Positions 8,864 through 61,163 of a DNA stretch of 64,000 nt are shown here, in pieces. The stretch covers positions 175,167 to 239,166 of the forward strand of contig JADIYM010000004.1 in the NCBI GenBank assembly GCA_016705245.1, written 5' to 3'. The notes under the pieces are model-generated. The model saw only the letters and a list, made by a program, of their open reading frames with translations. It did not search any database and was not told where the DNA came from. Position 1 is the first letter of the stretch; the number at the start of each line of letters is the position of its first letter. This DNA comes from Blastocatellia bacterium (lineage in GTDB: Bacteria; Acidobacteriota; Blastocatellia; UBA7656; JADIYM01). The translations under genes and the position numbers were made by a program.

Positions 8864-8914
8864 TCCAACAAACTATGCACGCGGAATCGCGAACTGCATA
8901 GGGCAGGCTCTCGT

Positions 8915-9022
8915 TGCTCTTTTGCGTCTTTGCGTCTTCCTCTGCGCCTTTGCGAGAACTTCTTTCTACGGATTGGAGAATTTCTCGCAAAGGCGCAGAG
9001 GAAGACGCAAGGCGCAAGATGA
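8915..9022. repeat. long imperfect hairpin (hairpin family copy B) in the divergent macro-gene / permease intergenic region
   Basis: tttgcgtctttgcgtcttcctctgcgcctttgcgagaa ... ttctcgcaaaggcgcagaggaagacgcaaggcgcaaga. Core is homologous to copy C at 32110. Confidence 0.6.
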
Positions 9023-9233
9023 GCAGTGAGCCGGCTCGAGGCACGGCAGGGATCCGTAGTTCGCGCCGGGACCTTGATCGAAAGTGACCCACTACCCTCG
9101 GCACGCGCTGCTTGACACGCTGATCCGAACAATCGTCTGATGGAGCGATTTCTTCGCTCGACAGCGCCTTCCTCGAGGTTCCCACGGTGACCCGTCTCGC
9201 AGCCGTCCAACGCCGGTTGATCAACGTGAGCCG

Positions 9234-11019: not shown

Positions 11020-11690
11020 GGTGGGTGGCCGAGCATCAGTACCGCGAGCGGTAGCGAGCTGGCCGGCGGACGGTCGTACGAAGCATTGAGCGTTCTGCGT
11101 CTGGTGGGAGGGGAACCCGCTCGCTCTCGCTCGCGGTACTGATCCTTTGTCAGTCGACTGTGCCTCGCAGGACGCGTCCGTCACTCTCACCTCTCTGACC
11201 TCGTTCGCTTTCAGTCGTACGACCCGCTCGCTCTCGCTCGCGGTACTGATCCTTTGCCAGTGGACTGTGCCGTGCAGGACGCGTCCGTCATATCGCCATG
11301 CATCTTGTGGCGGGATCAGTACCGCGAGCGATAGCGAGCGGGTCGATTTGGAGGCGGGATACGCCGGTGGTCGAGTGCGCTCGTTACCTATCGCGCAGCG
11401 ATTTCGTTCAGCGGACGTGTGTCCGCTGGCCGGGCCCGCTCTCGCTCGCCGTACTGATCCTTTGCCAAAGGACTGTGCCTTGCAGGACGCGTCCGTCATA
11501 TCGCCATGCATCTCGTGACAGGATCAGTACCGCGAGCGATGGCGAGCGGGTCGCACTGGAGGCGGGATACGCCGGTGGTCGAGTGCGCTCGCTACCTACC
11601 GCGCAGCGCTTTCGGTCAGCGGACGTCTGTCAGCTGGCCGGGCTCGCTCTCGCTCGCGGTAGTGACACATGCGGTGTCGGTGCTCTCCAC
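11020..11690. repeat. repeat region: one palindromic MITE/REP-like copy followed by about 2.5 tandem copies of a 208-bp unit carrying the same inverted-repeat core
   Basis: atcagtaccgcgagcggtagcgagc / gctcgctctcgctcgcggtactgat arms. Near-identical units begin around 11222 and 11430. Predicted ORFs here give the same peptide in shifting frames, so they are spurious. Confidence 0.75.
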
Positions 11691-16744: not shown

Positions 16745-17190
16745 CCAATAGCATCAGAACCGCGAGCGGTAGCGAGCTGGCCGGCGGACAGTGTTCAGGA
16801 CCACCCGCATCGTGCACTACCATGCAGGCCTGGTCCCGTTCCTTGAGCCGCGAGCGGTAGCGAGCGTCCCACGGACGGTGCCTGAACTCGCAGACTCCTC
16901 CTTGCGGAAGGACGGAAGTAATCGGAACCGGTCGACTGTCCGTGGGACGCTCGCTACCGCTCGCGGCTCAAAAAATCGGGGAAAACCGCAATACCAGGCA
17001 AGCGGAGCGGGCGGGGGGGGGCAAGGACGGCATAATCGGAACCGGTCGACTGTCCGTGGGACGCTCGCTACCGCTCGCGCCTCAATAAACGGGAAAACGG
17101 GGATAACGGGGATCACCCGCATCGTGCACTACCAGGCAGGCCTGGTCCCGTCCCTTGAGCCGCGAGCGGTTACCTACGAGAAGCACCGAT
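16745..17190. mobile_element. cluster of MITE/REP-like repeat copies (composite: type-II segment cacccgcatcgtgcactaccaggcagg plus TIR-bounded type-I units)
   Basis: The TIR gagccgcgagcggtagcgagcgtcccacggacgg and its reverse complement occur three times here. The same units occur at 25500, 40010 and 11030. Confidence 0.75.
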
Positions 17191-17785
17191 AATGGCCGGT
17201 GATCTTCCACGCGAAGAGCACATCCTCGAGCGCCGCGCCCTGTCCGATGTTGTGGACGACGAGTCGGCGCGATGTCGACGCGTCGACCGCATCGGTAACA
17301 ATGCCGATGTGCGGGACGCCTCCTCCGAGGTCCCACGCAACCACGTCGCCGGCCGCGTACCCGGCCGGGTCGTCTCCGATCCCGACCGACGCCCGCTGGC
17401 GCTCGAAATACACCGCGAGGTTCGGGACACGTCGGTGATCGATGTTCGAATCCGGTCGCGAAAGTCCCCACCGCTTCGGATATGCCTTGAAATTCCTACG
17501 CATGTCCTCGTGAACGGCCTGCTGTAGATCCACGCCCGCCGAACGAAACGCGCGAATGACCACGTCCGTACAAACGCCCCGGTCGCTGGGAACGTCGCCT
17601 CCGGGATACCCGATTCGCACGTAGGCAGGATCGTAGATCGTGGTCACACCGATCTGGCTCATCGCCGCCTCGACCACGATGCGGACCGACTGAGATCCGA
17701 TCGGCTCGGTCCGACGCGCCGCATCCGCGGGCGAACACGCCAGCGTCAACACGGCCGCAAGCACTGTCGCGATTCCAGATCTCAC
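17174..17785 (-). CDS. secreted DUF1287-like protein
   Basis: Signal peptide MRSGIATVLAAVLTLACS. The VCTDVVIRAFRSAGVDL segment resembles DUF1287, from memory only. Confidence 0.45.
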   Translation of the reverse strand: MRSGIATVLAAVLTLACSPADAARRTEPIGSQSVRIVVEAAMSQIGVTTIYDPAYVRIGYPGGDVPSDRGVCTDVVIRAFRSAGVDLQQAVHEDMRRNFKAYPKRWGLSRPDSNIDHRRVPNLAVYFERQRASVGIGDDPAGYAAGDVVAWDLGGGVPHIGIVTDAVDASTSRRLVVHNIGQGAALEDVLFAWKITGHYRCFS

Positions 17786-22891: not shown

Positions 22892-22976
22892 CCGTGGCCT
22901 CCGAAAGTTCGTTCACTGCAGCAGCGGGTAGTGACTCTACCAAATGCTCAGAGGCGAGACTACGAAGACATCGCCG

Positions 22977-24083
22977 TCAACGCGGCGGAGGCGCCGCAAA
23001 GACCGACTCGGCGAGGAGCATCGTGAACCGCTCTGCGCCAGCGGCATTCAGGTGACCGACGTCGAACCGGAGCTCGGGATCGTAGAGCTCCGGGTATCTA
23101 TCCGGGTCGTTGAACGCCAGCACCGTGGCTCCGTCGATCTCGCGAGCGCGGCGGATCAACTCGGCTCGGGTCGAGAGACAAGGCGGGACAACGAGGATGA
23201 CGCGTGCCCCGGTGGCGCGGACCCGGTCAACGACGTTCCGGAGGAGCTCGATCTCGAAGTCGATGACACGCCCCTCGCCGTCTTCGTTCTCGACACCGGC
23301 GCGCAGCTCGGCGAGCTTCTCTTCGTAGCGGTCCTCCTCGAACGCACCGAACATGTCGCGACGCAGGGCAAAGACCTTTGCCTGCTCGTCGTCGAGCGAG
23401 ACGTAGCCGTCGGACAGCATTCCAAGCGGCGGCGCCTTCTCAGTGCCAGCGTCGTCGAGCAGTGGCGCACCGAGGAGGCCGCGGCCACGACCGATGAATG
23501 CGGCACGTCGAACGAAGGCCTCGATGTGCGACGCGACGTCCTTGATCTTCTTGCCGCGCGAGGTATCACCGGCTGCGACCCCGCGAATTGCCGCAAGCGT
23601 GCCCGCGGCATCGTGCCACGCGTCGAATCGGCGCGTATGCAAGTTGGCCGGACGGACTCGAGAGTGCAGCGAATCGAGCTCGATGAAGACGAACCGGAAG
23701 CGATGATCGCCGGATGCGAGAGCCCGGTCGACAAGCCAGTACGTCTCGGGCGGATCCATTCCCGGTATGCCCATGTTGAACGAGGAAGTCGGCGCCCCGG
23801 CCCCGGCGGCGAAGGAATCGAATCGGGCCGGAACGAACTCGCGATAGACGTAGCTCGAGCCAATGAAGACGGCGTCGTAACGCGCCGGGTTCGCTTTCAG
23901 GTGCGCCAGCTTCTCGCCAATCACCGGGACGTCGCCCTGAACGTCTAGCGCGTGCAGCACTCCGAGTGCCGCCAACACGAGGGCGAGCACGATCGCAAGT
24001 CGCGTGACGAACCGAACGAAGCTAGAACTGGAAGTAGATGAAGGCACGTTCGTCGAACCGTCCGAAAAGAAGAATGACCACAA
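22977..24083 (-). CDS. membrane-anchored periplasmic accessory protein partnered with the MBOAT (AlgX/AlgJ/DltD/PatB-like, SGNH-type; tentative)
   Basis: N-terminal TM anchor LAIVLALVLAALGVL. Directly downstream of, and overlapping, the MBOAT gene. Homology is inferred mainly from context. Confidence 0.45.
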   Translation of the reverse strand: MWSFFFSDGSTNVPSSTSSSSFVRFVTRLAIVLALVLAALGVLHALDVQGDVPVIGEKLAHLKANPARYDAVFIGSSYVYREFVPARFDSFAAGAGAPTSSFNMGIPGMDPPETYWLVDRALASGDHRFRFVFIELDSLHSRVRPANLHTRRFDAWHDAAGTLAAIRGVAAGDTSRGKKIKDVASHIEAFVRRAAFIGRGRGLLGAPLLDDAGTEKAPPLGMLSDGYVSLDDEQAKVFALRRDMFGAFEEDRYEEKLAELRAGVENEDGEGRVIDFEIELLRNVVDRVRATGARVILVVPPCLSTRAELIRRAREIDGATVLAFNDPDRYPELYDPELRFDVGHLNAAGAERFTMLLAESVFAAPPPR

Positions 24084-25571
24084 TGAGCGCGGCGTACAAC
24101 GCGAGTCGCGCGAGATCGGGCAGCTTTCCGAGCCAGGCAGGCACGCTGCCGCGCTCCTGAACGAGCTGCACCGCCTCGAGCAGAATGACGAAAGCGACGG
24201 TCAGCGCGAGCTCGATCCCGTCGAATCCAGGGACCGCGATAGGCTGCGCGGCGTCCGCCCAACTCGCAATCCGCATTATGACCGCGCTCGCGTCGCCGAC
24301 CGACTCAGCGCGGAAGAAGATCCATGCGAACGTCACCAGGTGGAACGTCGCGAGTCCGGCGACGAGCGGCCGCAGTCGAGCTGTCGCCGTGCCGGCCGCG
24401 GACCATGCCCTCTCGCGCAGACTGGATGAAGCGAGAGCCGCCACCATGAACCCGCCGTGCAGCGCTCCCCAAACCAGGTAAGTCCAGTTTGCCCCGTGCC
24501 AGAAACCGCTGACCGTGAAGACGATCATGAGATTCGCAGCGAGCCGCCACGCGCCGACCCTGCTGCCGCCGAGCGGTATGAACACGTAATCGCGAAACCA
24601 CGTCGAGAGCGAAATGTGCCATCGCCGCCAGAAGGCGCGAATCGAGGTTGCGAAGTAGGGCCGCTCGAAATTTCGCGTCAGGTCGAATCCGAGGACTCGA
24701 GCGGCACCGACGGCGATATCCGAGTACCCCGAGAAGTCGCAGTAGATCTGATAGGCGAAACAGTACGTTGCCACCGTCAGTCGCAAGCCGGATTGCGACG
24801 ATGGATCGTCGTAGACGGCATTCACGAAAACCGCCAGCCGGTCGGCGATCACGAGCTTCTTGAAGAAGCCCCACAACATGAGCCGGAGGCCCGACGCCGC
24901 CATCGCCGGATCGAATCGATGCTCGACGAGGAATTGCGGCAGAAGGTGTGCCGCTCGCTCGATCGGGCCGGCAACAAGCTGCGGAAAGAAGGCAATGAAG
25001 AGTGCGAAGCGTCCGAGATGACGCTCGGGCTCGCGCTCGCGACGGTAGATGTCGATCGTGTAGTTGAGAGCCTGGAACGTGTGGAACGAAATGCCGATCG
25101 GCAGAATGACGTCGAGATCGGGAATGCCATAAAGCACGTCGAACGACTCGGTGACCGAACGGAGCGTGTCGTTGACGAAGTTGAAGTACTTGAAGAAAAA
25201 GAGCAGTCCGAGATTGGACGCCAGACTGATGCCGAGGAAGAGCCGGCGGCGGGCCTCCGTCGATGCCCCGGCAATCACCCGCCCGGCAATGTAGTCTACG
25301 ATCGTGAGCAGCCAGATGACCGCTACGTAAGCGGGCTTCCAGCTTTATCAAAGTAGTAGGAGGCGACGAGCAGCCACGCCCATCGCACGCGGTGCGGGAT
25401 CAGGAAATAGACCACCGCGACGATCGGGAAGTAGACGAGAAAGTGGAGTGAGTTGAAGAGCACGAGATCGTGTGGTCTGGCGACGGGGGCGCTGCCCCGC
25501 GTGGATTCTCGCCGCGAACGCCGATCAGGCCAAGGGCGCATCAGAACCGCGAGCGGTAGCGACCGTCCCAC
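24022..25571 (-). CDS. MBOAT-family membrane O-acyltransferase (AlgI/DltB/PatA-like) with a 1-nt frameshift near 25345-25352
   Basis: N-terminal piece LHFLVYFPIVAVVYFLIPHRVRWAWLLVASYYF (frame 1, stop at 25323). Continues as SWKPAYVAVIWLLTIVDYIAGRVIAGAS...HTFQALNYTIDIYRRE...FPQLVAGPIERA (frame 2). The junction is at gataaagc (A-run). Confidence 0.75.
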
Positions 25572-25835
25572 GGACGGTGCCTGAAATCGCAGACTCGTCG
25601 TTGCGAAAGGACAGAAGTGACCGGAACCGTTCGACCGTCCGTGGGACGCTCGCTACCGCTCGCGGCTCATAAAACGGGGATCACCCGCATCGTGCACTAC
25701 CAGGCAGGACGCTCCGCCGGTCCCCGTTCCTCGTCCCCGTTTTTCGAGCAGCGAGCGGTAGCGAGCGTCCCACGGACAGTGCCTGAAACCGCCAGCGCCC
25801 TACTCATCGACGCAGCCTCGCCCGGCAAAACCTCT
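25500..25835. mobile_element. MITE/REP-like composite repeat copy (full type-I unit plus type-II segment plus extra left TIR)
   Basis: gaaccgcgagcggtagcgaccgtcccacggacggtgcctgaaatcgcagactcgtcgttgcgaaaggacag...ccgtccgtgggacgctcgctaccgctcgcggctca, then gatcacccgcatcgtgcactaccaggcagg. Confidence 0.75.
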
Positions 25836-25842
25836 CAGTCTC

Positions 25843-27228
25843 TCAGCTCGTCAGGTTCTCCACATCGCGGTACTCCGGCACGATCGCAGTCCATCCAAGT
25901 TCCCTTTCGATTCGCTTTCGAAGTCCCTCGGCCTGATCCGGCTCTCCGTGGGTGATGAACACGCGTCTCGGTTTCCCGTGAAAGCCGCGCAGCCACGCCA
26001 TCAATTCGTCGGTGTCGGCGTGTGCCGAAAGATTCGACACGGATCGAACCTCCGCACGCACGGGCACCAACTCGCCATGGATCTTCAATTCGGACGTTCC
26101 CGACACAAAGTCCGCGCCTCGCGTGCCGCCCGCCTGGTATCCAACGAATACGATCGAGTTCGCCGGATTCGGGGCGAGGGAGTGCAGGTGGTGAAGTACA
26201 CGACCGCCCGTGGCCATGCCGCTCGCCGAAATGATGACCTTCGGACGGTCGTCCGCCGAGAGTCGCTTCGAGTCTTCGACGGAGTTGATGTAGCGGGCTA
26301 CCCCGCACATGGAGGACGCTTCGCTGGCTGTCAGGCGATGTTGTCCCTCGGAGCGGACGAACAACTCCGTCGCGTTGACGGCCATCGGCGAGTCGAGAAA
26401 GACCGGAACGTCCGGAATTGCGCCCTTCGTCTTGAGCTGCGACAGAAACCAGAGAACCGATTGCGCGCGGCCGACGGCGAACGCCGGAATCAGCACCGTT
26501 CCACCGCGCTTCACGGTGTCGCGCACGATGTCGCCCAGCTCAACCATCGGATCGGTTTTCGGGTGACGCCGTATTCCATATGTAGATTCGACGACGAGAT
26601 AGTCGGCAGCCTCGATCGCCGACGGGGCGTTCATCAGCGGATCGTTGATGCGACCGACATCTCCCGAAAAGACCACGGTGGTTGTCTGACCGTCGTTCGA
26701 TACATCGTGCGATCGCTCGAAGACCGCGTGCCCCGCCCCGAGAATGTGGCCGGCGGGCACGAGCTTCACGCGCAACTCGCCTGTCAGTTCGAGCCACTCG
26801 CCGAACCGGATCGCCTGGAGCCGGTCTAACGCGCGTTCCGCGTCCTCAGTCGTATACAGCGGCTCTGCCGGGTGGTGTTTCGAATACCCACGCCGGTTTG
26901 CATAACGCGCCTCCTCTTCCTGCAGCTTCGCCGCATCGGGCAGCAGGATTCGACAGAGGTCACGGGTCGATTCGGAGCAGTAGACGGGACCCGAAAAGCC
27001 GTTCCTCACAAAAAGCGGCAGGTAGCCGCTGTGATCGATGTGCGCGTGAGTCAACACGACCGAGTCTACGGTCGACGGATAGATCGGCAGGTCGGCACGA
27101 TTCCGCAACCGGAGTTGCTTGTAGCCCTGAAAGAGGCCGCAGTCGACCATGACGCGGGTATCACCATCGACGAGAACGTGCTTCGAACCCGTGACGGTTC
27201 CGTTTGCTCCCAGAAACATGATCTGCAT
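25843..27228 (-). CDS. MBL-fold beta-CASP family RNA-processing hydrolase
   Basis: VLTHAHIDHSGYLP metal motif plus beta-CASP and C-terminal RNA-specificity regions. 461 aa. Confidence 0.8.
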   Translation of the reverse strand: MQIMFLGANGTVTGSKHVLVDGDTRVMVDCGLFQGYKQLRLRNRADLPIYPSTVDSVVLTHAHIDHSGYLPLFVRNGFSGPVYCSESTRDLCRILLPDAAKLQEEEARYANRRGYSKHHPAEPLYTTEDAERALDRLQAIRFGEWLELTGELRVKLVPAGHILGAGHAVFERSHDVSNDGQTTTVVFSGDVGRINDPLMNAPSAIEAADYLVVESTYGIRRHPKTDPMVELGDIVRDTVKRGGTVLIPAFAVGRAQSVLWFLSQLKTKGAIPDVPVFLDSPMAVNATELFVRSEGQHRLTASEASSMCGVARYINSVEDSKRLSADDRPKVIISASGMATGGRVLHHLHSLAPNPANSIVFVGYQAGGTRGADFVSGTSELKIHGELVPVRAEVRSVSNLSAHADTDELMAWLRGFHGKPRRVFITHGEPDQAEGLRKRIERELGWTAIVPEYRDVENLTS

Positions 27229-27354: not shown

Positions 27355-27430
27355 CAGAGCCGGCGCGATTGCCGTACGCATTCAGTACCGTGCGCGGTAG
27401 CGCACGGGTCACACTCCTGGCACGGACAGC
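27355..27430. repeat. short degenerate copy of the MITE/REP-like inverted repeat
   Basis: cagtaccgtgcgcggtagcgcacgggtcac ... ccggcatcagt. Confidence 0.4.
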
Positions 27431-32109: not shown

Positions 32110-32196
32110 CACCTGCGCCTTTGCGCCTTTGCGCCTTTGCGAGAACTTCTTCGACGGCTTGAAGAGTTTCTCGCAAAGGCGCAAAGGCGCAAGAGA
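32110..32196. repeat. long hairpin with three tandem cctttgcg units per arm (hairpin family copy C); terminator-like, downstream of the 32226-33926 operon
   Basis: ctgcgcctttgcgcctttgcgcctttgcgagaacttcttcgacggcttgaagagtttctcgcaaaggcgcaaaggcgcaagag. Confidence 0.6.
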
Positions 32197-32225
32197 GCAA
32201 CTGACAGATTGACCCACTACAGGCA

Positions 32226-38559: not shown

Positions 38560-38695
38560 ACGGGCGGTCCACGCATCAGTACCGGGCGCGGTAGCGCTCG
38601 GGTCAGCCTCTCCGTTAGCCCGCTCCTGGTGTCGTCACACGCGCTCGGGATCGACCCGAGCGCTACCGCGCCCGGTACTGATGCGTGAGGCGTGC
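38560..38695. repeat. variant copy of the MITE/REP-like palindromic element
   Basis: catcagtaccgggcgcggtagcgctcgggtc ... gacccgagcgctaccgcgcccggtactgatg. Confidence 0.7.
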
Positions 38696-39737: not shown

Positions 39738-39998
39738 ATGGCGCGCGGATGGGACAGCAAGGCGATCGAGGACCAGATCGCGGAGGCGGAAGCGGCAAAG
39801 GCCAATCGCGATAAGCCGGTAGTATCGCGTGACGAGCGTGAGTCGGTTGCACGACTCAGGTCGCTCGAACTGTCTCGCGTGAACGTGCTTAACCGACTGG
39901 AGGCTGCCCGCGACGAGCGGTATCGCGTTCAGCTGAGCGCGGCATTGGACCACCTTGAGAACGAAATCCGTGAGCTGAACGAAACCGCTGCGCGGTAG
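39738..39998 (+). CDS. hypothetical small coiled-coil protein
   Basis: 86 aa, charged and heptad-like. Confidence 0.4.
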   Translation: MARGWDSKAIEDQIAEAEAAKANRDKPVVSRDERESVARLRSLELSRVNVLNRLEAARDERYRVQLSAALDHLENEIRELNETAAR

Positions 39999-40009: not shown

Positions 40010-40205
40010 CGGGGTGCCTGGTAGTCCACGATGCGGCTGTTCCCCGCTTCTCCCCGTTTTTCGAGCCGCGAGCGGTAGCGAGCGTCCCACGGACGGTCGT
40101 TCGGTTCGATCACTTCCGTCCTTCCACAACGACGAGTCTGCGATTTCAGGCACCGTCCGTGGGACGCTCGCTACCGCTCGCGGCTCAAGGAACGGGGAAC
40201 GAGGA
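40010..40205. mobile_element. MITE/REP-like composite repeat copy (opposite orientation)
   Basis: gagccgcgagcggtagcgagcgtcccacggacgg ... ccgtccgtgggacgctcgctaccgctcgcggctca. The internal segment is the reverse complement of the 25548 copy. Preceded by a type-II segment in reverse orientation. Confidence 0.75.
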
Positions 40206-40244
40206 ACGAGGAACGGGGAAGCATCCTGCCGCCGATCGCGTCTC

Positions 40245-41703
40245 TCACCGCGTAACCGGCAACCTCAGCCGTCCAACACACCCCCGCGCGTCCGCCCGAT
40301 TCTCGAGCGTCAGCGTCCCGCCGTGCGCTTCGACGATCTGCCGGCTCAGCACCAGGCCGATCCCCGATCCACCCGGCTTTGTCGTGAAAAACGGAACGAA
40401 CAGATTCGCCGTGTTCGCGATTCCCAGCCCGTCGTCCTCCACGAACAGCTCGAGCCAGCCCCGTTCGCACGTCCATCCCACTACCACCCCGCCATCGGTC
40501 TCGACGACCGCGTCCGCCGCATTCCGAATGAGGTTGATGAGCGCCTGCTCGAGCTGGTCACCATCCGCCTGTACCGTCACCAGCGGTCCCGGCCGAACCA
40601 CCACCGGAGCCGCTCTTCAACAGCGATTGCCCGCCGGACCAGCGTCTCGACGTCCAGCTGTTGCACCTTCGGCTCCGGCAGCTTCGCGAGTGCGGCATAC
40701 GCCTGCATGAACCGGTTGAGCGCCGCGGCACGCGATCCGATCGTCGACAGTCCCCTGCGCGCGTCGTCGCGCCAGTCATCCGCGAGGGGCCCGGCAGCGA
40801 GCAGCGACTCGAGACTCGCGGCGATCGACTTGATCGGCGCAAGCGAGTTGTTCAGTTCGTGGCCAATGACGCGGATGATCCGGCGCCACGCGAGCCGCTC
40901 CTCCTCGCGAAGCTCGCGGCTCAGGTCCGGAACGACAAGCAGATGATGCGGCCGGCCGCCTTCGCGGAAGGCCCCGCGACGCACGCTCCATCGACCGCCG
41001 CCTTGCGCCGCCGATTCGATGGTCCGAACCGGATCCCCCTCGAGGCAGTCGTCGAGCCCCAACTCATCGGCGGTCTGACCGATGGCGGCCTCGGTCGTTC
41101 GACCCAGGAACCGTTCGCCCGCGCGATTCAGCAGCCGTAGCCGCTTGTCGAAGTCGAACGCGAAGATCGCGACGTCGATCTCCGAAATCACCGTCCGCAG
41201 GAGCGTCGTGGCTTCCATCGCGCCGAGCCGCTGCTCGCGCAAGGTCTCGCTGAGCGCGTTCACCTCGAACAGCGCCTCGCCCATCGCGTCGTCGAGCCCG
41301 GCGCCCCGCGCGCGGATCGAGTAGTCACCCTCCCGGATAGCCGCAAGAAGATTCGAGAGCGACTGGATCGGCCGCACCACCCGCTCGCGCAACGAAAACG
41401 CAAATCCGAGCCAGAAGCCCACAACCAGAAGCATCACGGTCCATTGCAATTTCGCGCTCGCTTCGCTGGCGATCAGCAACACCAGACAGGCCACCACACC
41501 TGGCAATCCCGTCAGCAAGGCGAGCCGCAGCACGTCCCGTTCGACCGTGACACGTCGCTTCCGCCGTATCCTGTCGAGCCGCAACTTCCGCCAAAACCCG
41601 ACAATCGCGAAAGTGACCGAGCCGGCGCTGTCGCGCAGCGCGGCCATCGGCGACCTCGATGCCGACGACTCCGAATGCCGTCCGATGGTCTTCAGCACGT
41701 CCA

Positions 41704-45444: not shown

Positions 45445-45530
45445 GACTGCGTTTCTGCGTCTGCACTCCGCGTCTCTGCGAGAAGCAGTTTCTCGCAGAG
45501 ACGCGGAGTGCAGACGCAGAGACACTGAAT
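45445..45530. repeat. long hairpin (hairpin family copy D), terminator-like
   Basis: ctgcgtctgcactccgcgtctctgcgagaagcagtttctcgcagagacgcggagtgcagacgcag. Confidence 0.6.
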
Positions 45531-61038: not shown

Positions 61039-61062
61039 GCCGGGCGAGCCACCCGCGCGACT

Positions 61063-61163
61063 CCGTGTCTCTGTGACCCTGTGCCTCTGTGTGCGAAGCT
61101 CCTCAGATCGTCTCAAGAGCTTCGCACACAGAGACACGACGGCACAGAGGCACAGAGATCACG
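61063..61163. repeat. long hairpin (hairpin family copy E) between convergent genes; arms of ctctgtg / cacagag units
   Basis: gtgtctctgtgaccctgtgcctctgtgtgcgaagctcctcagatcgtctcaagagcttcgcacacagagacacgacggcacagaggcacagagatcac. Confidence 0.6.

Follow-up and report, generated by a model that had tools for sequence, protein, structure and literature searches.

Which kind of element are the inverted repeats that recur between the genes of a Blastocatellia bacterium, and with which enzyme could they be associated? The question is raised by a stretch of 64,000 nucleotides of contig JADIYM010000004.1 (positions 175,167 to 239,166), hereafter called the window, which is ordinary chromosome with a GC content of 63%, is devoid of tRNA genes and carries related repeats at six intergenic sites. 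In the original prediction, made from the letters alone, the repeats were described as a dispersed, intergenic and non-autonomous family, either a miniature inverted-repeat transposable element (MITE) or similar to repetitive extragenic palindromes (REPs), with a small structured RNA as a further possibility. The analysis supports the dispersed, intergenic and non-autonomous character, and it assigns the repeats, with a probability of roughly 80%, to a REP-like family resembling bacterial interspersed mosaic elements (BIMEs), organised as REP doublets forming hairpins (REPINs), that belongs to a class-3 Y1 HUH single-stranded DNA (ssDNA) transposase system. This assignment is made because the repeats occur above chance, because their stems co-vary, because they resemble the REP of Solibacter, because Y1 genes in relatives are flanked by hairpins of this family, because a model built from these Y1-flanking hairpins recovers the arms of the window and because of the fold of the Y1 protein. 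The family is a lineage-specific addition to an already described but little-studied REP class.

The 34-nt arm GAGCCGCGAGCGGTAGCGAGCGTCCCACGGACGG matches the window eight times with at most three mismatches (16845+, 16936-, 17050-, 25544+, 25635-, 25746+, 40063+, and 40153-), with 0 matches expected and none found in 100 dinucleotide-preserving shuffles, which shows the predicted repeat family to be real. A shorter core, ACCGCGAGCGGTAGCGAGCGG, is found 14 times versus 0.03 expected, the structure-type pattern CCNNNNGCGGTAGCNNNNGG brings in variants at 27388, 38582, and 38656, and with a looser core about 19 arms are counted, distributed over the six sites. All six are intergenic as judged by the Pfam-supported flanking genes, which include mscL, a GNAT acetyltransferase, DUF1287, a beta-CASP RNase, a rhodanese and histidine kinases, and two of the sites, the cluster at about 11 kb and the unit at about 40 kb, each lie between convergent stop codons. 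In total the family amounts to 1,701 nt or 2.7% of the window, less than the approximately 2.5 kb estimated before. A repeat finder delineates three complete units (16835-16980, 25537-25680, and 40051-40198) with 47-nt inverted arms and an asymmetric spacer of 54-55 nt, besides which there are half units, single arms and the different-looking cluster at 11026-11665. A tRNA fragment had been considered as a trivial source of the core; no tRNA or tmRNA origin of the repeats was found in the window.

The basic unit that is common to all copies is a hairpin module of about 26 nt, rather than the terminal inverted repeat (TIR) of 32-47 nt. Each arm consists of an unpaired foot, a 5' stem half ACC-GCGAGC, a loop GGTA and a 3' stem half GCGAGC-GG(G)T. 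The foot is CAGA or CAGT (CAGW), and TCGA or TTGA (YYGA) in the main subtype of the window. The two GCGAGC blocks pair in antiparallel orientation, resulting in a 9-bp stem that is interrupted mid-way by a tandem G·A/A·G mismatch. Variants that keep the stem are present in the window (CCGTGCGC/GCGCACGG at 27388 and CCGGGCGC/GCGCTCGG at 38582) and in related contigs (CCGGGAGC/GCGACCGG, ACCACCTGC/GCGGGTGGT, and ACGGCCTGC/GCGGGCCGT), the stem forms seen being GCGAGC/GCGAGC, GGGAGC/GCGACC, GTGCGC/GCGCAC, GGGCGC/GCGCTC, CCTGC/GCGGG, and ACCACC/GGTGGT. For a set of 83 distinct arms, anchored on the foot, the 5' half and the loop alone, the stem covariation score is 0.138 compared to 0.070±0.008 for shuffles, none of 500 shuffles reaching 0.138, and a control with slid partners yields at most 0.047; double changes are found in seven of the nine stem pairs. 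The single arm of the G·A type is regarded as a hairpin because its stem co-varies and not because of its predicted stability.

Arms occur as singlets, as inverted doublets that form hairpins of 115-150 nt and as mosaic clusters containing a linker module. Taking the window and 74 related loci together, adjacent arms are mostly convergent, being arranged 31 times as +/-, 11 times as -/+, seven times as ++ and seven times as --, with spacings of about 60-125 nt, and the spacers between paired arms measure about 20-125 nt and are unrelated in sequence between subfamilies. The linker, which had been recognised as the second module of a composite, REP-like element, is confirmed: the window contains CACCCGCATCGTGCACTACCAGGCAGG four times, as a rule 18 nt past one specific arm, that of the B side; the module often precedes the next arm, and the same arrangement is found in another metagenome-assembled genome (MAG). 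Because the module recurs beyond the B-side arm and is often followed by another arm, the arrays are mosaics as described for BIMEs. The occurrence in both orientations also holds, as the unit at 40 kb is oriented opposite to the other complete units. Its internal segment is the reverse complement of that of the unit at 25548, although not the exact one as first reported: identity is 93% over 80 nt, about 90% for the spacer alone, with one indel.

These features bear on the possibility that the units are classical MITEs, i.e., deletion derivatives of a DDE-type insertion sequence (IS) with TIRs of approximately 32-47 bp, moved by a cut-and-paste mechanism under formation of target-site duplications. 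Long inverted ends enclose a conserved interior in the full units, which are found in either orientation and without a transposase nearby, all of which would suit such an element. However, no target-site duplications were seen at the unit boundaries, where apparent matches of 2 nt are the inverted repeat continuing, and for many metagenome doublets, in which the inverted repeat runs on outward, the CAG foot is the wrong boundary for this test. Furthermore, arms are found alone, in head-to-head and tail-to-tail pairs with unrelated spacers and in tandem arrays, and each arm is itself a co-varying hairpin. Clustering of the open reading frames (ORFs) near the repeats returned only common signalling families, and no recurrent transposase ORF was found among the 74 repeat-bearing loci and the window, whole genomes not having been searched. 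The sole gene family associated with the repeats encodes a Y1 HUH enzyme and not a DDE transposase. A TIR-bounded MITE, as initially proposed, is therefore extremely unlikely.

Could the repeats instead be maintained by the host as a functional RNA or regulatory element, such as a structured RNA, a stabiliser of 3' ends, a terminator or an attenuator? They are always intergenic and often positioned directly downstream of stop codons, and their folds are very stable. Full doublets fold as long hairpins with z-scores of -5.9 to -14.3, and folding of one unit (16835-16980, DNA folding), a check suggested at the outset, returned a single long hairpin of -61.6 kcal/mol with z = -11.8. In the stems G·T pairs exceed A·C pairs by about 2:1 (34 versus 16), and the structure is therefore selected on one strand. 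Such a one-strand bias is, however, equally expected if a Y1 enzyme recognises ssDNA. On both strands a T-run precedes the hairpin and an A-run follows it (TCCCCGTTTTT-hairpin-AAAAACGGGGA), the opposite of the order in an intrinsic terminator. The units are present in either orientation relative to the flanking genes, and syntenic relatives have none at the corresponding junctions, as described below. No family of Rfam 15 reached the gathering score, and with permissive E-values the long hairpins matched nothing but miRNA-precursor models, far below threshold. The small structured RNA put forward at first thus finds no backing in Rfam, and we consider a host-maintained RNA or regulatory element very unlikely.

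The family is dispersed and lineage-wide and not local to this region, as judged by matches in genomes and metagenomes. An exact-pattern scan of one genome per species returned at least 74 repeat-bearing stretches and a scan of metagenomes at least 120. Among the matches listed, 42 stretches, many of them at contig ends, belong to a single MAG (CAZXLQ01, labelled 'uncultured Clostridia') and agree with the window in arm, spacer and flanks, while the remaining listed stretches are mostly from Blastocatellia, Pyrinomonadaceae and other Acidobacteriota MAGs and show the generic form ACAGWACCGCGAGCGGTAGCGAGCGGGT followed by an inverted copy. As a control, six contigs of 60 kb in total that were fetched via an unrelated gene contained no arm. 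With respect to assembly, many CAZXLQ01 contigs end inside arms, i.e., the repeats break short-read assemblies, and one further contig (L198, 5409-5602) ends in a poly-G artefact directly after TTACAGAACCG, the start of a REP arm. A 16-nt core, GCGAGCGGTAGCGAGC, recurs with identical flanks within MAGs that are unrelated, namely L009, L010, and L045 (Thermoplasmata MAG) and likewise L005/L052 and L018/L047 (Phreatobacter, Rhizobiaceae, and Hyphomicrobiales MAGs; example CCTCATCCTGAGGTGCGAGCGGTAGCGAGCCTCGAAGGAC); this sequence similarity suggests that related hairpin repeats exist outside the Acidobacteriota.

Orthologous junctions without repeats were found in two relatives. The contig L201 is syntenic with window positions 30087-14555 at 71-77% nucleotide identity and carries no arm: the spacer between DUF1287 and the GNAT gene has 56 nt versus 497 nt in the window, and the rhodanese and beta-CASP genes overlap, whereas in the window they are separated by 207 nt with one arm. 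In the contig L204, also without an arm, the beta-CASP-MBOAT spacer measures 33 nt versus about 370 nt with repeats in the window. Because syntenic relatives lack the repeats at these places, the repeats represent gains or losses at conserved junctions and not conserved regulatory sequence. In the same region, about 2.9 kb of the window (22903-25862, MBOAT and a 348-aa gene, as in L204) lie between beta-CASP and a Ser/Thr kinase, and this block is absent from the closer relative L201 (4049-4203).

Which enzyme may act on such hairpins is suggested by the genes next to which they are found. The absence of a cognate transposase from the window, already noted by the original prediction, was confirmed for Y1 enzymes, no homologue being detected by tblastn, phmmer, a motif search or with E. 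coli RayT, while no exhaustive screen for non-Y1 transposases was made. In the first 74 loci neither motif expressions (Y-x3-N-P and class-3 motifs) nor phmmer with E. coli RayT returned a Y1 gene; the motif expressions were too strict, as they missed the Y1 gene of L038 that was later detected with the L103 protein. In related contigs, eight Y1_Tnp genes of about 170 aa have hairpins within about 10-100 nt. Three of these (L103, L157, and L038) were found through the repeat. The metagenome locus L103 contains a 168-aa ORF with the motifs NHVH and YVQYDQ and a Pfam Y1_Tnp score of 29 bits (cut-off 23), an arm (TTACCGAACCGCGAGCGTTAGCGAGCGGATGCTA) 12 nt upstream of the ATG and more arms about 100-370 nt downstream, and the Y1 proteins of L157 and L038 are each 49% identical to that of L103, their genes being flanked by the co-varying hairpins CAGAACCACCTGC-GGTA-GCGGGTGGT and CAGAAGCCCGAGC-GTGA-GCGAGGGC, respectively. 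The other five (L196-L200) were fetched by protein identity alone, and in every one of them hairpins of the family lie about 10-100 nt or less from the ends of the gene. Three of these five, L103-type orthologues with about 70% identity, have the same GCGAGC/GCGAGC stem as the window, and the other clade has CCTGC/GCGGG stems; each Y1 clade has its own hairpin stem variant. A covariance model (R1) that was built from 15 Y1-flanking hairpins, none of them from the window, recovers 14 arms of the window at E<0.01, all within the six sites, and nothing else below E = 0.1.

The proteins themselves agree with this association. A profile search yielded at least 6,944 proteins at E<=1e-10 of about 170 aa (JGI name RayT), corresponding to at least 6,900 protein clusters at 90% identity, which belong to Pyrinomonadaceae and Acidobacteria MAGs by their NCBI names. 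The match to PF01797 (Y1_Tnp), scored at 29.2-29.5 bits for a cut-off of 23, is shared by all of 40 members. Among their invariant residues are RTNHVH and Y157...Q162 (Y-V-x3-Q). The model NF047646 (REP_Tyr_transpos) is matched with 23-28 bits at a cut-off of 80, and the NCBIfam IS200 model equally weakly and below its cut-off. The Y1 profile has no match among the PDB sequences. The AlphaFold model (pLDDT 77.8) most closely resembles 4ER8, a complex of the E. coli RAYT with a REP hairpin; every other significant match is to a TnpA of IS200, IS608, or ISDra2, and the top 30 Foldseek matches are all RAYTs or these TnpA proteins.

One Y1 clade is encoded at a fixed locus, nusA-infB-rbfA-DHH(nrnA-like) | Y1 | cobO, in at least four contigs (L196 5540-6049, L197 10001-10513, L157 775-1272, and the JGI contig of protein P0062). 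Its proteins are 74-79% identical, and between L196 and L197 the Y1 protein is 74% identical, compared to 82% for infB and 85% for rbfA. Because the locus is fixed and the identity of Y1 is near that of infB and rbfA, this clade appears to be inherited vertically rather than by transposition, as it is the case for RAYTs. In the same sample as P0062, a Y1 paralogue (P0065) is encoded between prmA and rsmE.

The fixed locus also bears on the possibility that the Y1 gene and its flanking hairpins constitute an autonomous IS200/IS605-like IS, the units of the window being miniatures of it similar to palindrome-associated transposable elements (PATEs) and not REPs that depend on an immobile, domesticated gene of the RAYT type. 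The Y-x4-Q motif is that of IS200 TnpA, the NCBIfam models of IS200 and of the REP tyrosine transposase score equally weakly, hairpins in direct orientation stand on either side of the L103 gene, as the left and right ends do in IS200/IS605, L103-type genes are found in differing neighbourhoods and class 3 was described as falling between IS and REPtron (Quentin et al., 2018, PMC6006769). Against this stand the clade at the housekeeping locus, for which vertical inheritance is indicated, the hairpins vastly outnumbering the genes and several flanking arrangements that are inverted and not direct. An autonomous IS200-like element is possible for some Y1 clades, with the fixed locus disfavouring it, and as an explanation of the family we regard it as improbable.

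For the REP/BIME-like family of a class-3 Y1 system, the following sequence of events would account for the observations. A Y1 enzyme of about 170 aa, encoded elsewhere in the genome, would recognise the hairpin together with its foot on ssDNA, most plausibly at the replication fork; recognition of foot and hairpin in this form is presumed in analogy to RAYT and IS200/IS605. The enzyme would cleave and rejoin the DNA there, by which singlets or doublets would be excised and inserted without target-site duplication, and clusters would then grow via local tandem duplication. Effects on the host, such as stabilised mRNA 3' ends or pausing, would be secondary. We infer that the Y1 enzymes would act catalytically on these hairpins, that the family would be mobile at present and that this genome would contain a partner gene.

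Several points weigh against the assignment. By nearest-neighbour DNA parameters the single arm of the G·A type forms no stable hairpin (z = 0.05). The window genome's own Y1 partner is not found in the window, the part of the genome that was searched. The main subtype of the window has the foot TCGA/TTGA and not CAGA, and no Y1 gene flanked by exactly this subtype was recovered. The orthologous empty sites are about 25% diverged, making a gain or a loss visible, yet no clean insertion event. To our knowledge, class-3 Y1 enzymes have never been studied biochemically.

A more far-reaching reading is that class-3 Y1 enzymes paired with REPs form a major system of soil Acidobacteriota, spread across the phylum and inherited for the most part vertically, rather than a rarity of a few genomes. 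It is suggested by the at least 6,900 protein clusters, the clade at the fixed locus, the several paralogues possible per genome and the stem variants matched to clades, and the conserved tandem G·A may be what determines recognition; we hold it tentatively, at somewhat less than even odds. If true, the REPIN-RAYT 'within-genome replicator' systems would have an independent counterpart outside the Proteobacteria.

The individual sites differ in composition. The first, REP cluster 1 (11026-11665), lies between the convergent genes mscL (stop 11007) and a CxxCxxCC gene (stop 11733) and contains seven arms of the type CAGTACC-GCGAGC-[GGTA/GATA/GAGA]-GCGAGC-GGGT at 11032-11074(+), 11111-11144(-), 11218-11251(-), 11314-11348(+), about 11430-11460(-, degenerate), 11522-11555(+), and 11638-11665(-); it includes a 208-nt tandem duplication (11226-11433 and 11434-11641) with 91% identity. 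The second, at 16745-17172, directly adjoins the stop codon of the DUF1287 gene (17174-17785, minus strand). It begins with a single plus-strand arm at 16750-16792 of the subtype CAGAACC...GCGAGC-TGGCCGGCGGAC, which scores 20.5 bits with the covariance model, followed on the plus strand by linker module 2 (CACCCGCATCGTGCACTACCATGCAGG) with the lead-in to the following arm (16793-16834) and by the complete 146-nt unit 16835-16980(+), composed of arm A (16835-16879), a 55-nt asymmetric spacer and the inverted arm B (16935-16980). Further on there are a half unit on the minus strand (17023-17094), comprising the B-side portion of the spacer and arm B (17050-17083), and, on the plus strand (17105-17172), module 2 (17105-17140), after which comes arm A in truncated form (17141-17172).

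At the third site the complete plus-strand unit 25537-25680 has an arm with a CAGAACC foot (25544-25577), a spacer and an inverted arm (25635-25668), and it is followed, also on the plus strand (25673-25792), by module 2 (25673-25708) and a third, solitary arm A (25734-25792), this segment lying just downstream of the beta-CASP stop codon (25843). The adjoining MBOAT/AlgI-like gene (24022-25571, minus strand) is seemingly split over two reading frames, its N-terminus (...LFNSLHFLVYFP...) being in ORF 25323-25571 and the remainder in 24022-25278, by a frameshift or an assembly error. The fourth site is a single plus-strand arm of the variant CAGTACC-GTGCGC-GGTA-GCGCAC-GGGT at 27380-27416, and not at 27355 as listed earlier; it scores 19.9 bits and has Watson-Crick pairs in place of the tandem G·A, forming a perfect 8-bp hairpin of -12.1 kcal/mol with z = -4.3. 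The fifth, a variant doublet CAGTACC-GGGCGC-GGTA-GCGCTC-GGGT at 38570-38687, consists of two 35-nt arms with 100% complementarity and a 48-nt spacer. The sixth, at 40012-40230 on the minus strand, holds the complete unit of opposite orientation (40051-40198), the arms of which are at 40063-40096 and 40153-40186. On one side of this unit is an inverted module 2 (40013-40046) and on the other are GGAACG-type short repeats (40199-40230), and the convergent stop codons are at 39998 and 40245.

Long spurious plus-strand ORFs cross repeat units at 40014-40946 and 16791-17192, and as spurious ORFs of different loci cluster by BLASTP, repeat-derived 'hypothetical proteins' are likely in the annotations of these MAGs. 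The window also contains a second, unrelated family of long intergenic hairpins (478-550, 8910-9030, 32114-32199, 45451-45523, and 61061-61157), the arms of which consist of degenerate 7-8-nt tandem units (TGCGCCTT, TGCGTCTC, and TGTGCCTC) around a centre ...TGCGAGAAnTTCT-loop-AGAAnTTCTCGCA...; in Rfam this family gave only sub-threshold matches to miRNA hairpins.

One hairpin family thus accounts for about 3% of the window and for many contig breaks in related MAGs, and naming it helps the annotation and binning of Blastocatellia and Pyrinomonadaceae genomes because of the spurious ORFs (e.g., 40014-40946) and the fragmented assemblies. For class-3 Y1 enzymes a candidate substrate is now defined by the foot, the stem with tandem G·A and the GGTA loop, and compensatory variants that occur naturally, Y1 clades paired with particular forms of the hairpin and a chromosomal locus that is conserved are supplied as well. 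Thereby, hairpin recognition and the dynamics of REP populations become testable outside the Proteobacteria.

In comparison with known systems, three other candidates were rejected: an intrinsic terminator because the order of T-run and A-run is reversed, the attC site of integrons by reading the sequence (no GTTRRRY core, sites scattered among ordinary long genes, both orientations) and CRISPR by inspection. The IS200/IS605 elements and PATEs share with the present family the Y1 HUH enzyme, subterminal hairpins that are recognised as ssDNA, the absence of target-site duplications and the Y-x4-Q motif. In contrast to these, the Y1 gene is found here at a conserved housekeeping locus in several genomes, the hairpins are present in vast excess over the genes and the flanking sequences do not form a defined left and right end at which cleavage would occur at a fixed tetranucleotide.

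The REPIN/BIME-RAYT systems of E. coli and Pseudomonas (class 2) have in common with the repeats of the window the short imperfect palindromes with an unpaired tetranucleotide foot, the inverted doublets that form long hairpins, the mosaic clusters with linkers, the intergenic position and the absence of target-site duplications, and in both systems a Y1 HUH gene with its own REPs on its flanks occupies a fixed place in the chromosome, 4ER8 being the best structural match. Unlike canonical REPs, the arms have no GTAG (GT[AG]G) foot, the string GTAG being present only at the loop-stem junction GGTA|GC, and their stem carries the conserved tandem G·A. The Y1 proteins differ from RAYT in that they have no Y-I-x2-N-P motif, score below the cut-off of REP_Tyr_transpos (26 versus 80 bits) and show no detectable sequence match to any PDB chain. 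The arm motif has no match in the supplements of PMC3733652.

The closest likeness is to the class 3 TnpA-Y1 proteins, which were described in Acidobacteria, Planctomycetes, and Legionella, with Legionella pneumophila and Planctopirus limnophila among the hosts, and were placed between IS and REPtron (Quentin et al., 2018, PMC6006769). Atypical hairpins, the 5' foot of which is CnGA, border the genes of these proteins and number about 600 copies in Solibacter usitatus, and the protein signatures of class 3, NHVH and Y-x4-Q, are matched by the Y1 proteins analysed here (PMC6006769). Listed as class-3 REPs, with the annotated structure (((..((....))..))), are CAGAGCCGCGACCGTTAGGGAGCGTCCCG for the REPtron of ABJ83664.1 in Solibacter usitatus Ellin6076, CCGAGCCGCGACCGTAAGGGAGCGGA for Legionella and CACGAGCCGGAAGCGTGAGCGACGGGT for Planctopirus (PMC6006769, Table S1). 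The window arm TCGAGCCGCGAGCGGTAGCGAGCGTCCCA equals the Solibacter REP at 23 of 29 positions, the 3' GTCCC extension included. Shared with class-3 REPs are the CnGA-type foot, 3-5 bp, a tandem G·A (2x2) internal loop, 2 bp and a 4-nt loop, as well as the partner protein with NHVH and Y-x4-Q of about 170-180 aa, the high copy number and the intergenic location. The loops are GTTA, GTCA, or GTAA in class-3 REPs and GGTA in the window arms, the foot TCGA/TTGA of the main subtype is a relaxed form of CnGA, and between the Solibacter REP and the window arm the apical pair differs by a compensatory change (C-G/C-G versus G-C/C-G). The long doublets seen here, with their conserved asymmetric spacer of 54 nt, and the linker module were not described in PMC6006769, and the host belongs to the Blastocatellia (subdivision 4) and not, as Solibacter, to subdivision 3. 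In itself, the family is an ordinary member of this described class.

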